A stretch of 64,000 nucleotides of DNA from a phage: the sequence record PQ478073.1. The stretch is one strand, 5' to 3'. Below the pieces are notes generated by a model that saw nothing but the letters and a program-made list of their open reading frames with translations, ran no database searches and was not told the origin of the DNA. The stretch's first letter is position 1. Each line of letters begins with the position of its first letter. This document shows, piece after piece, positions 45,316-50,387 of the stretch. Position numbers and translations under genes: made by a program.

Positions 45316-45348
45316 GGGTTGACTTCGGTCAGCCTTTTTTGTTATGAT
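45316..45348 (+). promoter_or_regulatory. bifunctional terminator/promoter cassette (TTGACT-N18-TATGAT)
   Basis: GGTTGAC-TTCG-GTCAGCC + T6. Confidence 0.6.
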
Positions 45349-45376: not shown

Positions 45377-46018
45377 ATGACTAAGCAAGAAATATTCAAA
45401 ACTTTAATTGACATTTTGCGTCCATCAAAAACTCGTTGTGCGATGGAGTTTGATATTCCTTATGCTGAACGCGTAATCTTTCCACAAGTTAAAGCTGCTG
45501 GACTTACTTTGCTTGGAATGGGGATGTACTCTGTAGTAGTTGAACATAAAAACTATCCTGGGCGTGCATTTAAAGTAACCACTTCACGCTGGGATGGTTT
45601 TCGTGCTTATGCAAAGTACTGCATTGAAAACGCAGGAACCAAGTTTCTTCCAGTGATCTACAGTGCCAACGAACAAGGAAACTTTGGATGGTATGAGATG
45701 GACAAGTACTATCCTATAATTAAACAAAAAAATAATTATGATGACTTTGTTAGTACTAAAATTGGAGATTTGTATTCGTATGCACATGCTGGTCAGTACG
45801 CAACTTCAGTGAATGATATGCGTGGAAATTCTGAAGAGATTGCTATTGCAACGGTCGCTGCTAACATCATGAAAGAGTTTCACGGGCGTTTTGTACCAGA
45901 CATTCATTCAAGTAATGTGATGATGGATAAAGATGGGAATGTATTCATTACTGATCCTCTTTCGTGTGATGTGCGTAGAGAAATACCAATTACTGAAGAA
46001 GATCCAGTTTTTTATTGA
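45377..46018 (+). CDS. putative atypical protein kinase / phosphotransferase-like protein
   Basis: start ATG 45377 (SD AGAGGA); G-rich loop GMGMYSVV, AFKV lysine strand, catalytic-loop-like HSSNVMMDKDGNVFITDP. Confidence 0.45.
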   Translation: MTKQEIFKTLIDILRPSKTRCAMEFDIPYAERVIFPQVKAAGLTLLGMGMYSVVVEHKNYPGRAFKVTTSRWDGFRAYAKYCIENAGTKFLPVIYSANEQGNFGWYEMDKYYPIIKQKNNYDDFVSTKIGDLYSYAHAGQYATSVNDMRGNSEEIAIATVAANIMKEFHGRFVPDIHSSNVMMDKDGNVFITDPLSCDVRREIPITEEDPVFY

Positions 46019-46079
46019 CAGAACTGATGTTCTGATGTATTCTTAATAAACCATAAAAATTGCGGTAAAGGATAAAATC

Positions 46080-46361
46080 ATGCGTTCATTTGAAAACTTA
46101 ATAGGTAAGCATCTTTTATCTGAAATTGATGCAGACGTTAAAGAATTATCCAAATCAAAAAGTTACATTCATTTGGATGAACTGTTTATTAAGTACGGTG
46201 AGATTGGTTTTAAGTCATTATTTGTTTTTACTATGAAAGTACATAGTTTAAAGTACTTCGATTTGAGTGCTAAAGATGGTGAACCGAATCTATATTACAT
46301 GTATTACCTTAAGAACAAAGATGAAGCTAATACATTACTCTCTGAATATATATTGGGGTAA
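46080..46361 (+). CDS. hypothetical protein
   Basis: ORF 93 aa; SD AAAGGA. Confidence 0.55.
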   Translation: MRSFENLIGKHLLSEIDADVKELSKSKSYIHLDELFIKYGEIGFKSLFVFTMKVHSLKYFDLSAKDGEPNLYYMYYLKNKDEANTLLSEYILG

Positions 46362-46363
46362 AA

Positions 46364-46702
46364 ATGGAACAATATTTTGAATTAATAAACAAAGTATCAT
46401 TTTATGTAGTATCTTTGGTTTGGGTGTATTATATGTTTTGCTACATTATTGCATTCTTCCGATACACTACTTTATATGAACGTATCTACTATGATGCCCC
46501 AATTTCATTCTTGATGTTTTGTGCATGTACGTGGGGAATATTAGAAGTACTGATATGTGGGTATAGTACTGATGAATTAAATCTGGTATCGGTCTTGACT
46601 GGGTTTTCATTTGTTGTTATGATAGCTGCCGTTCCAGTATGGTTGTTCTTTGGACTAGTTCATCGCATTGATATATGGCGTTCTAATATCCCTGAAAAGT
46701 AA
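46364..46702 (+). CDS. small membrane protein, tandem family A (1 of 3)
   Basis: 3 TM helices; C-term WRSNIPEK. Confidence 0.55.
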   Translation: MEQYFELINKVSFYVVSLVWVYYMFCYIIAFFRYTTLYERIYYDAPISFLMFCACTWGILEVLICGYSTDELNLVSVLTGFSFVVMIAAVPVWLFFGLVHRIDIWRSNIPEK

Positions 46703-46705
46703 GGA

Positions 46706-47053
46706 TTGGTAATGATTTATTACACTAACATGTTTGCCTATGCTGTTGCTTGCATTTACATTGTTTACTTCTTATTCGGTGGAGTACTGTGCTTCTTTAA
46801 GTACAAAACGTTGTTCAACCGAATGTACCCAAATCATCCAATTGTAGTTGTACTTTTGATTCTTTCAGTTTCTCAAATAATCGTTGAAACTACAATGGGT
46901 ATCAGTAGTGTACATTATAGTTTTGGCACTATAGTAATTATTACTATGCTTATTGCATACATTTTAGTACTTGGATATGGTATCTTTGGTAATATTGGTA
47001 TGAAAATGTATCATCGAATTAAAACATTACGTGATAATCTACCGGAGCGTTGA
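46706..47053 (+). CDS. small membrane protein, tandem family A (2 of 3)
   Basis: C-term LRDNLPER. Confidence 0.55.
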   Translation: MVMIYYTNMFAYAVACIYIVYFLFGGVLCFFKYKTLFNRMYPNHPIVVVLLILSVSQIIVETTMGISSVHYSFGTIVIITMLIAYILVLGYGIFGNIGMKMYHRIKTLRDNLPER

Positions 47054-47054
47054 T

Positions 47055-47399
47055 ATGTATAATTTGAACCTAATCTCATATATTATAACAACACTGTTTA
47101 CATTCTATGCCTTTGTTGGTATAATCCTACTGTACTTTAAATTTTATAAAGTGTTTAACCGTTTCTATCCTTCAATGGAGAATGAGTTTTTCTTTGTGTT
47201 GTACGTAGGTTACACATTAATGGCTACATGTTTCACTGTAGCCGATGGCGTCATCGGCATTAAAACTGATTCCCCAAATGGTAGTACGCTGGTTGCATTT
47301 ATTCTTACTGGATTCCTTGCAACTTATATTGCCTTCATTACAACATGGTCAGTGGTTGAATTTCTCTTGCGACTACGAAAGAATATGCCGAATCGATAG
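47055..47399 (+). CDS. small membrane protein, tandem family A (3 of 3)
   Basis: start ATG 47055 (SD GGAGCG); C-term LRKNMPNR. Confidence 0.55.
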   Translation: MYNLNLISYIITTLFTFYAFVGIILLYFKFYKVFNRFYPSMENEFFFVLYVGYTLMATCFTVADGVIGIKTDSPNGSTLVAFILTGFLATYIAFITTWSVVEFLLRLRKNMPNR

Positions 47400-47408
47400 G
47401 AGACATAT

Positions 47409-47663
47409 ATGTTTGCGTTGCGTAATAAAAACACTAAAGAATTATTATGTATTGATACCGTATGGGATTGTGCGGGATCAACTACAGTTCTTGAAGAAGG
47501 AACTGGATATTGCGTGTTTGTTGTTCATGATAGGAATGAACTCGAATTATTACTTGCTGAGTTCAATGCTGGTGGTAATCCTAACAGTACTGAATACCCT
47601 GAGATTATCAATCCAGCACCACCAGGCTCTTATGAAATTCTACAACTGTGGGAGTTGAAGTAA
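47409..47663 (+). CDS. hypothetical protein
   Basis: ORF 84 aa; SD TAGGAGA. Confidence 0.55.
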   Translation: MFALRNKNTKELLCIDTVWDCAGSTTVLEEGTGYCVFVVHDRNELELLLAEFNAGGNPNSTEYPEIINPAPPGSYEILQLWELK

Positions 47664-48043
47664 TGCGTCAAATGCACAAAGTAACCGAGCTAAACAAGCG
47701 TCTGGTTAAACAATCAATGTTCGAGGATAAAGAGTCTTATTATAACTTTAAACGTGCAGTAGAGGCTGCTATCCACATTCAGAAGCTTAAAGAACGTGGT
47801 TGTATTATTCTGGAAAATGGTTCGGAAGTTGTAACGGATGACTTTAGTGTAGCGTTTGATGTTTCACCTGACGGGACGCTATCAATGCCCCGCTTAGGAA
47901 CTGGAAACATGACTGTTTGGGTTGGCTTCACTATGGGGAATGTACCTGGTACTGTGTACGTAGATGATGCGGAATTGAAAGACAGTTTCAAAAACTTATC
48001 TTATCTTGAACCACAATACGCACATGAAATGAATTTATTTTGA
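47663..48043 (+). CDS. hypothetical protein
   Basis: start ATG 47663 (TAATG overlap, SD GGGAG). Confidence 0.5.
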   Translation: MRQMHKVTELNKRLVKQSMFEDKESYYNFKRAVEAAIHIQKLKERGCIILENGSEVVTDDFSVAFDVSPDGTLSMPRLGTGNMTVWVGFTMGNVPGTVYVDDAELKDSFKNLSYLEPQYAHEMNLF

Positions 48044-48044
48044 G

Positions 48045-48072
48045 TTGACAAACACATTCAGTACTGTATAAT
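48045..48072 (+). promoter_or_regulatory. promoter TTGACA-N16-TATAAT with CAGTACTG box
   Basis: consensus hexamers. Confidence 0.6.
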
Positions 48073-48119
48073 GCTTATCAAGGGGATGAACTTCTCATCC
48101 CTACAATCGAGGAACTACC

Positions 48120-48674
48120 ATGATTACTTTTAAGAAAACTGCTAACCACATCCATGAAATCTACATTAACGGTCACAAAGCTGGCCTTCTTCGTTTACTC
48201 GCCCATCATCCTGATGTTACCGTATCTGATAATGAACCTAAAGATTGGCGTGTATTTTTCTTTGGAAAGTACAGTGATTTTCAAGTATCAAACCTGAAGA
48301 ACATTCGTTCAGTATGCACGTTAACTGAAATTAAAGAAAAGTTAGAAAAAGCATTGAAAACTAATCCAGATGGTGTTCTTCCACCTGATAACTTTGTAGA
48401 GAAAGGTTATGCATTAGCTCATTTCAAAGATGGTACTATTCAATCTATCAGTACTGAATATGAATATCAATGGACTGAGTACTTCACTTATGGATCGCGT
48501 AATACATTGATGGCTTCACGTAGTAAATTGGAAGAAGTACTGACTCGTATGAATGAACGCGAACGTCAATTTTATGACAAACCAGAAATGTGGAGTTCAA
48601 CTTACATTGACCGTATTGACTATGTTATTATGACTCCAATCTTTGACACTGCTTACTATGATTCTTTGAAATAA
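48120..48674 (+). CDS. hypothetical protein
   Basis: ORF 184 aa; SD CGAGGAA. Confidence 0.6.
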   Translation: MITFKKTANHIHEIYINGHKAGLLRLLAHHPDVTVSDNEPKDWRVFFFGKYSDFQVSNLKNIRSVCTLTEIKEKLEKALKTNPDGVLPPDNFVEKGYALAHFKDGTIQSISTEYEYQWTEYFTYGSRNTLMASRSKLEEVLTRMNERERQFYDKPEMWSSTYIDRIDYVIMTPIFDTAYYDSLK

Positions 48675-48685
48675 GGATAACTTAT

Positions 48686-48862
48686 ATGAAACTACGTACT
48701 CGTAATAGACTGATGGATGCACTGTACCATGAACAGCTTTCACTGAATGAAGTGAAGCGTCAGTTAATGTACACATATCTGTTACCCGCTCGCATTGCAA
48801 AACAACGTGCTAAAGAATTGCTGAAAGAAGCAATCGAGTACTGGGAATCTGATTCGTACTAA
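48686..48862 (+). CDS. small hypothetical protein (58 aa)
   Basis: ATG with SD TAAGGA; not in ORF track. Confidence 0.45.
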   Translation: MKLRTRNRLMDALYHEQLSLNEVKRQLMYTYLLPARIAKQRAKELLKEAIEYWESDSY

Positions 48863-48901
48863 TATTACGTGATATGTCACGTTAATTAAGTGAGGCGATA
48901 A

Positions 48902-49153
48902 ATGAAAATATTATTAGTTCTAATACTACTAATAGTTTTACCATTTACTTTAGTATCCCCTGGACTTGCATGGAATGTATTTGTGTACTTAGTATGTACT
49001 ATTGTAGTAAATGGTATCTTGTTCTTAGTTCTATTCATAAATGGAATAGGACACGGTGGAGGATGGACCAGTACTGCTGATATCGTACATAAAACCACTA
49101 TGTCTTTATTTGTAATGTGGAATTTGTTCTGGACTTGGTTTGTGTTCTTCTAA
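48902..49153 (+). CDS. small membrane protein
   Basis: ORF 83 aa; 3 hydrophobic helices; SD TGAGG. Confidence 0.5.
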   Translation: MKILLVLILLIVLPFTLVSPGLAWNVFVYLVCTIVVNGILFLVLFINGIGHGGGWTSTADIVHKTTMSLFVMWNLFWTWFVFF

Positions 49154-49161
49154 TTAAAAAT

Positions 49162-49533
49162 ATGAATATAGATTTGAAAGGTGCAACCCGAACTGTTATC
49201 CTCATTGGGGAATACGCTATCAAGATTCCAACCTTCAAAAGCTGGAAGTTATTCCTAACTGGAATGATAGCTAACCTCAATGAACGTTCATGGATGCAGT
49301 ACTCCAATCGTAGTGATAGTGGTATCTGCCCTACTTTGTGGTCATCATGTACAGGACTAGTAACTGTACAGAAACGTTGTAAGCCAGTTCAACATAGGGG
49401 TTTATTTTGGGTGGAGTTGTGTGCTTTAGCATTGAATTCAGAGTTAAGTACTGACTTCTTTTATTCAGATGCGAAGCCAGAAAACTTTGGTTATCTGAAT
49501 GGTAAGTTAGTTAAACTTGATTATGGAGATTAA
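49162..49533 (+). CDS. putative minimal protein-kinase-like protein
   Basis: start ATG 49162; G-loop KGATRTVILIGEYAIKIP, catalytic-loop-like DAKPENFGY, DFG-like KLDYGD. Confidence 0.4.
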   Translation: MNIDLKGATRTVILIGEYAIKIPTFKSWKLFLTGMIANLNERSWMQYSNRSDSGICPTLWSSCTGLVTVQKRCKPVQHRGLFWVELCALALNSELSTDFFYSDAKPENFGYLNGKLVKLDYGD

Positions 49534-49534
49534 G

Positions 49535-49804
49535 ATGTACGCACTGTATAATAAAGAAAAGAAACGATTTGCTAAGGTTGAAATTTCGATTGATACCTTT
49601 GATATGTTGGAGTACTGTATTGTGACGGACCTATATGCTAACTTGTATTACGTTCTTGATGACGTATCAGTACTGCAACGATTGCTTGAGAATTCCAAAA
49701 GTCAATGCCAGGGCATCCATGATGGTTCATCTTATGAAACACCTGAGTGTTCCTACGGCTATCTGGACGGGTATGAGATTGTGAAGTTGGGGATTGTTGA
49801 ATAA
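49535..49804 (+). CDS. hypothetical protein
   Basis: start ATG 49535 (SD GGAGA). Confidence 0.5.
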   Translation: MYALYNKEKKRFAKVEISIDTFDMLEYCIVTDLYANLYYVLDDVSVLQRLLENSKSQCQGIHDGSSYETPECSYGYLDGYEIVKLGIVE

Positions 49805-49810
49805 AGAAAA

Positions 49811-49843
49811 GGGTTGACTACGGTCAGCCCTTTTTGCTATAAT
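49811..49843 (+). promoter_or_regulatory. bifunctional terminator/promoter cassette (GGGTTGAC-TACG-GTCAGCCC-T5; TTGACT-N18-TATAAT)
   Basis: perfect stem; cassette plus 5'UTR near-identical to copies at 51093 and 52814. Confidence 0.7.
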
Positions 49844-49871
49844 CATTTCATCGAAACGAGAGGATGAATAC

Positions 49872-50387
49872 ATGACACGCATTAACTTAGTACACGTTAA
49901 AGAACTTGCTGACCAACATCTGATGGCTGAATATCGTGAACTCCCACGTGTATTTGGTTCTGTACAAAAACACGTTCAAGCACGTAAGCGTGTACGTGAT
50001 TTCAAAATTAACAGTACTTACCTGTTGGGTTCAGGTCATGTAACATTCTTCTACAACAAGTTATTGTACTTACAGAAGCGTCATATTGATATTGTTAACG
50101 AATGTTTGCGTCGTGGTATGAAGATTCAAAACACTGAAGTAAACGACATTAGCGGATTCCCTGCTGAGTTTTGTAATGACTACGTACCATCGGAGTCAGA
50201 GATTAAAATGTCTCGTGATCGTTTGATTGAGAAGCTCCAGATGAAGCCTACGTGGTATAAGTTTACTGATGTTGAATGTCCACAGTACGTTAAAGATATG
50301 CAGAACGTAAGTAGTAAGAACGAATCTAGTACTGATATGTTCGACGAAATTGAAGAACAAATCAAAGATGAAATGAATAATTATTAA
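49872..50387 (+). CDS. denV: endonuclease V (pyrimidine dimer DNA glycosylase/AP lyase) with C-terminal acidic extension
   Basis: 171 aa; N-term MTRINL[23 protein letters not shown] ... KRVRDFKI ... [10 protein letters not shown] ... PTWYK matches T4 DenV from memory. Confidence 0.9.

Follow-up and report, generated by a model that had tools for sequence, protein, structure and literature searches.

Two independent kinase-fold genes in Escherichia jumbo phage DNA: a T7K-family homologue and a half-length kinase-like protein from an unannotated phage family

Do two short open reading frames (ORFs) in the DNA of a large phage encode protein kinases, and could a polypeptide of little more than 120 residues be one? 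The question is raised by a stretch of 64,000 nucleotides of the sequence record PQ478073.1 (hereafter the window), in which a preliminary description made from the letters alone had noticed kinase-like motifs in two genes of the same strand, here called ORF A and ORF B (Table 1). All motifs quoted there are present where they had been placed. About 5.5 kb around both ORFs are 98–99% identical to the Escherichia phages SP27, G17, Sharanji, 121Q and PBECO4, and the source is assigned to Asteriusvirus, the E. coli jumbo phages of the 121Q/PBECO4/G17 type with genomes of about 350 kb. In these phages ORF A corresponds to 121Q gp205, G17_00108 and Sharanji WNN14432.1, and ORF B to 121Q gp215, G17_00098 and Sharanji WNN14422.1, all three of the latter being labelled ‘hypothetical’. 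The explanation that we favour, and regard with some reserve as the probable one, is that the two are independent and mutually unrelated kinase genes, both devoid of a C-lobe and both located behind sigma70-like promoters, ORF A being a kinase of the type of T7 gp0.7 (T7K) and ORF B an active phosphotransferase of low specificity.

What kind of kinase is ORF A? Comparison with PHROGs gave phrog_15752, annotated as T7 0.7-type protein kinase, with an E-value of 4.7e-92 and phrog_2828, the T7K PHROG, with 8e-17. BLASTP against T7 gp0.7 itself found 27% identity over gp0.7 residues 68-216 (E 6e-9), and hhalign aligned the ORF A family profile with gp0.7 residues 61-225 at a probability of 98.5%, LGMGMYS being paired with LGNGHFS, AFKV with VIKV, PDIHSSNVMM with FDMHSGNIMF and FITDP with YITDP. 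All 19 homologues compared share G47, G49, K66, D175, H177, N180, D193 and P194, for which reason the motifs are judged not to be chance matches. The homologues all carry the precomputed label PF27024.1. The AlphaFold2 (AF2) model of ORF A, with a predicted local distance difference test score (pLDDT) of 92.4, has 225 fold matches in the PDB at E<=1e-3 according to Foldseek, and all of the 50 matches listed are kinases, 49 of them protein kinases and the remaining one, at rank 9, the aminoglycoside phosphotransferase APH(3')-IIIa. This match and the D-x-H-x-x-N loop are what would recommend ORF A as a small-molecule phosphotransferase of the aminoglycoside/choline-kinase type, as the preliminary description had it. 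We consider such an assignment highly improbable, since the specific sequence homology is to the T7 gp0.7 protein kinase, protein kinases make up nearly all of the fold matches listed, no model of the local Pfam collection matches ORF A, the APH model included, and the AF2 model stops after the DFG-equivalent strand without a C-terminal helical substrate subdomain. The kinase-like nature proposed for ORF A is thus upheld and its class is corrected.

The start of ORF A differs between the records, being placed at 45344 in 121Q and Sharanji (224 amino acids) and at 45377 in G17. The downstream codon follows as the start from the homologues, which begin at the methionine matching 45377, from the location of the ATG at 45344 within a predicted promoter -10 box and from a GAGGA ribosome-binding site upstream of 45377. 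The start codons chosen in the preliminary description agree with this, as the homologues of the ORFs begin at the equivalent methionines.

How much of ORF A was known before? T7K is a hyperpromiscuous kinase that counters defence systems and is targeted to nucleic-acid-binding proteins by its C-terminal shutoff (SO) domain (PMC13645617, Nature 2026). ORF A does not have the SO DNA-binding domain of T7 and JSS1, and the jumbophage homologues of T7K, phage G17 being named among them, lack it as well (PMC13645617). Because SO loss is reported for these homologues, the domain is not defining for the kinase family but a mark of the Autographiviridae architecture, and ORF A is classed by its sequence as a T7K-family homologue without SO domain. 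With T7K and JSS1_004 (PHROG 2828/15752, CDD PHA00451) it shares the glycine equivalent to G76, the β3 lysine, the D-x-H-x-x-N loop and the T-D-P motif, soon after which the kinase core ends, with only 19 residues following in ORF A; like them it is apparently an early gene. In T7K the mutation G76F abolishes catalysis (PMC13645617). Besides the missing shutoff/DNA-binding domain, ORF A differs from T7K and JSS1_004 in reading DPL rather than DPV, in agreement with the observation that the Val of this motif is less conserved among jumbophage T7K homologues (PMC13645617). Moreover, S196 of ORF A aligns with Ser216 of T7K, a position occupied by Gly or Ala in most jumbophage homologues. For JSS1_004 it was found that the isolated kinase domain phosphorylates DndFGH in vitro (PMC12345140). 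With a kinase annotation in GenBank and with published homologues in G17 and Sharanji, the latter (WNN14432.1) being named a T7 kinase homologue in the Sharanji genome paper, this half of the finding is already known. By homology ORF A would bind Mg-ATP through G49, K66, D175/N180 and D193, and by analogy to T7K it would phosphorylate many host proteins on Ser, Thr and Tyr with little sequence preference, which most plausibly would disarm host defence and housekeeping proteins.

What, then, is ORF B? The coordinates given for it in the preliminary description are correct, the product having 123 rather than 124 residues. A template-free AF2 model (pLDDT 90.4, predicted template-modelling score 0.79) contains strands at residues 2-4, 10-15, 18-23 (with K21), 58-61, 68-71, 109-112 and 115-118 and helices at 28-43 (with E41) and 79-92 in addition to a short one at 97-101. 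Protein kinases account for all of the 50 PDB matches listed by Foldseek, among them TTK/MPS1, Lpg2603 and CK2α, with probabilities of 0.97-1.00 (1.0 for most) and with template-modelling (TM) scores of 0.45-0.65 relative to the query and about 0.3 relative to the target. The matches span the whole of ORF B, and a TM score of about 0.6 to the query against about 0.3 to the target means that ORF B corresponds to the first half of a kinase domain. Its best matches in BFVD are uncharacterised phage proteins of 117-210 residues, followed by Ser/Thr kinases of giant viruses, herpesviruses and poxviruses. Independent of structure, a profile of 141 sequences of the ORF B family matches TTK at E 0.0025, and the alignment pairs the family sequence ‘...pvDakpdnFGylngrlvkiDYG’ with the catalytic loop and the DFG motif of TTK; searches of the PDB sequences with the single sequence or with small profiles gave nothing useful. 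Structure prediction hence bears out the kinase fold proposed for both ORFs, and the eukaryotic-like character ascribed to the ORF B motifs has its counterpart in the TTK alignment. An alignment of the ORF B profile with PKA is not significant (probability 0.5%); its register agrees with that of the TTK alignment and it is used as a residue ruler only, equating D103 with D166, K105 with K168, N108 with N171 and D120 with D184. G7, K21 and E41 are the counterparts of G52, K72 and E91 of PKA.

In common with the eukaryotic-type Ser/Thr kinases, of which TTK/MPS1 is closest by profile and fold, ORF B has the N-lobe topology and the Lys-Glu pair, and its catalytic loop reads Y-S-D-A-K-P-E-N where that of PKA reads Y-R-D-L-K-P-E-N, with DYG standing for DFG. 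In contrast to these kinases it has G-x-T-R-x-V in place of GxGxxGxV and ends one residue past DYG, the activation segment, APE motif, P+1 loop and αF-αI all being missing. As judged from the model, ORF B is a protein-kinase fold of which only the N-lobe and the catalytic half are present. In canonical kinases αF anchors both hydrophobic spines; by alignment the regulatory spine of ORF B would consist of Y101, Y121, M45 and L59/W60. Reduced kinase cores occur elsewhere: Legionella Lpg2603, at rank 22 of the PDB matches of ORF B, is one that retains the catalytic residues, and the HopBF1 effector family and RIO/Bud32 are candidates for others. HopBF1, RIO/Bud32 and Lpg2603 have about 200–280 residues and keep a helical C-lobe including αF, whereas ORF B with its about 120 residues has none.

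Is the small size of ORF B an oddity of this genome? Across 144 diverse homologues K21 and E41 are conserved in 100%, G7, R10, G34 and D120 in 99% and N38 and G110 in 98%. Position 103 is Asp in 62% and Glu in 36% (D or E in 98%), position 108 is Asn in 65% and Ser in 31% (N or S in 96%), and K105 and Y121 are found in 85% and 90%, respectively. Owing to this conservation the motifs are taken not to be chance matches. The Gly-rich loop follows the motif G-x-T-R-x-V, and the distant member gp73 of PaMx11 has GEGIHRKV. In an exhaustive search of 1.84 billion cluster representatives (clusters at 50% identity) with a hidden Markov model of the family, 1,206 representatives passed E<=1e-3 and 639 of them even E<=1e-10, almost all of the best matches listed having 110-135 residues. 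The close homologues have 118-127 residues, bar one truncated copy of 102 residues (P0006), and within Asteriusviruses the gene is conserved at 95–100%. In 74% of the 144 sampled relatives at most one residue follows DYG and in 85% at most three. The common length and the end no more than one residue past DYG in 74% argue for an architecture under selection, and the shortness is attributed on these grounds to the family and not to a peculiarity of this genome. Some relatives are longer (OBP, 273 residues; Kc263, 267; RP12, 209; also P0152 and P0181), and the search for a C-lobe in them revealed only unrelated tails without a kinase or other Pfam domain. Left out of the family was P0063, a metagenomic protein of 1,073 residues that differs from the family in architecture, a unit of roughly 67 residues recurring in it about 16 times in tandem, and which matches the ORF B profile at E 2.5e-26 in 16 stretches, all of them confined to profile positions 51-101, and which probably reflects a repeat or translation artefact.

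ORF A and ORF B appear to be independent lineages of the kinase fold. No sequence relationship is detectable between the two families by hhalign, the probability being 1% for the ORF B family against the ORF A family and 0.3% against T7 gp0.7, and a kinship of the two was rejected on these values. Furthermore, the family of ORF B is unannotated. ORF B matches phrog_4301, of ‘unknown function’ in PHROGs v4, at E 7e-44, as do all 141 sampled relatives match this PHROG; a Pfam scan of the 141 relatives gave only three single weak matches (ABC1, PIP49_C and Mor), and for 94 relatives there is no precomputed Pfam domain and the source name is always ‘hypothetical protein’. Scans with NCBIfam and PADLOC gave nothing meaningful, and membership of ORF B in a known defence system was rejected for want of a match in either. 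In phage records of GenBank tblastn finds the family in 120 records, from phages of Escherichia (48), Pseudomonas (23), Aeromonas (15) and, among others, Erwinia, Salmonella, Klebsiella and Ralstonia. A label as Ser/Thr kinase is carried by four of the 120 (Kc263, AH04, PAKlein3 and pEa_SNUABM_5), for which no experimental support was found, and the rest are hypothetical. In the literature searched only the work on T7K/JSS1_004 and genome notes surfaced and no characterisation of this family of about 120 residues; the jumbo-phage survey of the Aravind group makes no mention of a kinase of the ORF B type, and the orthologue of ORF B is not among the kinases of the Sharanji paper. That paper names yet another ‘protein kinase’ in the genus, the third, WNN14351.1, which gene order places some 80 genes away from ORF A and outside the window.

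How could so small a protein act? According to the model, the about 120 residues of ORF B make up an N-lobe of five strands, αC and the hinge, a single αE-like helix, then the catalytic loop and a Mg-binding DYG. Lys-Glu pair, catalytic acid, Ser/Thr-type loop lysine and Mg-binding aspartate are under strict selection, which argues for a working phosphotransferase, and the missing substrate-docking lobe argues for one that is constitutively open and poorly selective. As each of the two genes sits behind a host-type (sigma70-like) promoter, transcription of both by host RNA polymerase, i.e. early in infection, is suggested. ORF B is therefore probably a minimal, poorly specific phosphotransferase that is expressed early, and we infer for it catalytic activity towards Ser/Thr of host proteins in the service of host takeover or anti-defence. 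That a kinase can do without αF-αI has its precedent in the T7K-type kinases, which stop soon after the DFG equivalent and are nevertheless active. That the phrog_4301 proteins as a whole, ORF B included, are self-sufficient, active and constitutively open kinases of about 120 residues with low specificity, which many unrelated phages would use on host proteins such as those of defence, is a tentative proposal to which we give clearly less than even weight. To our knowledge they would be the smallest protein kinases known.

Several observations weigh against this interpretation of the two genes. On the side of ORF A, what the jumbophage homologues do and how promiscuous they are ‘remain to be elucidated’ (PMC13645617), and the anti-Dnd activity of JSS1 in vivo needed the shutoff domain (PMC12345140), which ORF A lacks. 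As to ORF B, no Pfam family matches it at E<=1, Pkinase (PF00069) included, and its Gly-rich loop is cut to one glycine plus the invariant R10. In 30% of the family E-x-K-x-D-S replaces D-x-K-x-x-N, and a subgroup of jumbo phages (OBP, Kc263 and AH04) lacks the loop lysine, because of which chemistry or substrate may differ across the family. The T7K precedent is also incomplete, as the helical packing of ORF A exceeds that of ORF B by about 90 residues, and it may be that the 123 residues of ORF B alone, without αF, fail to hold a competent active site. Finally, the promoter calls are consensus matches only, and promoter-like sites are no more frequent in the region than in shuffled sequence.

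Could ORF B instead bind nucleotides without transferring phosphate? As a pseudokinase it would be a non-catalytic module that binds ATP or another nucleotide and acts by sequestration, or as a switch or scaffold towards some host protein. The strictest conservation does fall on the residues of nucleotide binding (K21, E41, D120 and G7), the catalytic loop is looser, with Asp or Glu at 103, Asn or Ser at 108, Lys at 105 in 85% and no Lys in OBP, Kc263 and AH04, and the substrate-binding lobe is absent. However, residue 103 is acidic in 98% and the metal-ligand position 108 is Asn or Ser in 96%, and in the E-x-K-x-D-S class an Asp has been acquired at 107 in compensation, which speaks for an active site that is maintained rather than decayed and leaves the pseudokinase unlikely, if by no means far-fetched. 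Rather less probable, in our estimate, is a kinase of small molecules or nucleotides, which would act on a metabolite, a signalling nucleotide or DNA or RNA ends. All peptide-docking elements of protein kinases are missing from ORF B, the sporadic weak Pfam matches include the atypical ABC1 family, and in two unrelated lineages the gene stands 0-1 genes upstream of that for the DNA-repair glycosylase DenV. But most lineages have no DenV linkage, the nearest proteins by sequence and fold are Ser/Thr protein kinases and not those of the APH, ChoK or Kdo type, and the loop lysine of D-x-K-P-x-N is typical of Ser/Thr protein kinases, for which this loop is the usual form.

Might the missing half be supplied by another polypeptide? 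The C-lobe of a split kinase could come from gp216, from another phage or host protein or from a second ORF B molecule in a homodimer, and αF is required in canonical kinases. The gene of gp216 begins one base past the stop codon of ORF B in the +1 frame, and together the two would make about 212 residues. Yet gp216 belongs to another PHROG (8563), and the extensions of the longer relatives are unrelated tails without kinase signal. Clustering of the same-strand genes within 2.5 kb at 38 loci of diverse phages yielded no neighbour family common to more than close relatives, and the genes downstream of the family member are mutually unrelated in four annotated phages, those of G4507, PaMx11 and AH04 being unlike gp216. 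Both findings argue against a phage-encoded C-lobe partner as well as a fusion with gp216 by frameshift, and a split gene, a frameshift with gp216 or a conserved partner gene was rejected on their account; a two-part kinase of any kind seems distinctly improbable. There remains the thought that ORF B is a fragment or an annotation artefact derived by decay from a full-length kinase. It is about half as long as any protein kinase so far characterised, and a few Asteriusvirus records hold shortened copies (that of P0006 and a partial one in TH47). Against it stand the common length and end point in the family of 1,206 clusters (lengths from the matches listed, ends from the 144 relatives), the invariant active-site residues, the confident fold and the conservation across Asteriusviruses, and in view of the family architecture we regard it as effectively refuted. 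The reading of ORF B as a small active phosphotransferase is preferred to all of these.

Does the genomic context tell more about the family? It spans T4-like, lambdoid and jumbo phages and Pseudomonas siphoviruses, both lytic and temperate, and its gene stands alone within variable accessory regions, in surroundings that differ from phage to phage (Table 1). The lambdoid ‘moron’ slot and the Tad2-like neighbour hint at a role in host interaction or anti-defence. As to DenV (endonuclease V, a pyrimidine-dimer glycosylase), a gene of the ORF B type precedes it by 0-1 genes in the Asteriusviruses (window 49162-50387) and in five metagenomic viral contigs (L034, L035, L037, L038 and L040), with a kinase copy whose matches resemble those of the copy in Pseudomonas PaMx11-type siphoviruses. 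Between the two lineages DenV is 36–38% identical. The linkage is missing from the other approximately 30 ORF B loci and, with two lineages only, was rejected as too weak a functional clue.

Within the window an 18-nucleotide hairpin, GGTTGACTTCGGTCAGCC, occurs in nine copies on the + strand where none is expected. In the copies inspected (45317 and 49812) it is followed by a T-run and embeds the -35 element TTGACT, with TG-TATGAT or TATAAT following about 18 nucleotides on. The element resembles a terminator joined to a sigma70-type promoter in a single cassette, by which transcription units would be set apart. The hairpin also explains the ‘ADRSQPF’ peptides that recur in ORFs of the reverse frames. 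Between the two kinase genes (46364-47399, + strand) lie three tandem genes, 121Q gp207-209, which encode paralogous small hydrophobic, membrane-like proteins of 112-114 residues each (pairwise BLASTP E-values 8e-10, 1e-5 and 0.003). The products of gp210 (47409-47663, +) and gp216 (49535-49804, +) have similar N-termini, MFALRNK and MYALYNK; over the full length they are 27% identical at an E-value of only 0.06, and they may be distant paralogues.

Table 1. Positions of ORF A, ORF B, their motifs and nearby transcription signals in the window, and settings of ORF B relatives elsewhere
Feature	Position	Strand	Remarks
ORF A, T7K (T7 gp0.7)-family protein kinase by homology, kinase domain only	45377..46018	+	213 aa plus stop
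ORF A Gly-rich loop LGMGMYSVVV	45512-45541	+	G49 aligns with T7K G76
ORF A AFKV	45566-45577	+	Lys66 codon 45572..45574; β3 ATP-binding lysine, family-invariant
ORF A catalytic loop DIHSSN (D175-I-H177-S-S-N180)	45899-45916	+	T7K counterpart FDMHSGN
ORF A ITDP	45947-45958	+	T-D193-P at 45950..45958; T7K ‘DPV’ / DFG equivalent, reads DPL
ORF B, truncated protein-kinase-like protein, phrog_4301 family	49162..49533	+	123 aa plus stop
ORF B KGATRTV	49177-49197	+	reduced Gly-rich loop G7-A-T-R10-T-V12 at 49180..49197
ORF B AIKIP	49216-49230	+	Lys21 codon 49222..49224; strand β3
ORF B Glu41	49282..49284	+	αC helix (residues 28-43)
ORF B SDAKPENFG	49465-49491	+	catalytic loop D103-A-K105-P-E-N108 at 49468..49485
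ORF B KLDYGD, then stop	49513-49533	+	D120-Y-G122 (DFG equivalent) at 49519..49527; D123 is the last residue
Hairpin GGTTGACTTCGGTCAGCC	39189, 42432, 42615, 44234, 45317, 49812, 50395, 51094, 52815	+	
Hairpin/promoter cassette directly upstream of ORF A	45317..45348	+	TTGACT, TG-extended -10 TATGAT; promoter-like site 45319-45348; G17-annotated terminator
Sigma70 promoter TTGACA-16-TATAAT	48045..48072	+	12/12 consensus; heads predicted gp212-gp216 unit including ORF B
Second hairpin/promoter cassette	49812..49843	+	closes ORF B unit, precedes denV (49872..50387); G17-annotated terminator
ORF B relative, Tequatrovirus			near ipI/tRNA region
ORF B relatives, PaMx11 and AH04			among small early-type genes
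ORF B relative, Salmonella prophages	L007/L008 6001-6372		between Rz-type lysis gene and Nu1 terminase gene (lambdoid ‘moron’ slot)
ORF B relative, 64-kb contig	L009 6001-6381		about 1.5 kb from Tad2-like (anti-Thoeris) gene

What do the two genes mean for kinases and for phages? ORF A, as a published jumbophage T7K homologue, adds nothing new. ORF B represents the kinase fold in a new structural form, and its phage family is large and unannotated. If active, it would set the minimal sequence for kinase chemistry at an N-lobe, a single helix, a catalytic loop and DFG, αF and the activation segment being dispensed with. Textbooks hold the spines anchored by αF to be indispensable, a view that such activity would challenge, and structural and engineering work would gain a scaffold of very small size. 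A function for the family of 1,206 clusters would annotate a recurrent accessory gene of phages. If the reading is true, the ORF B family would constitute a second, independent case of ‘pervasive phosphorylation’ beside T7K, and its function could extend promiscuous phosphorylation as a general counter-defence of phages.

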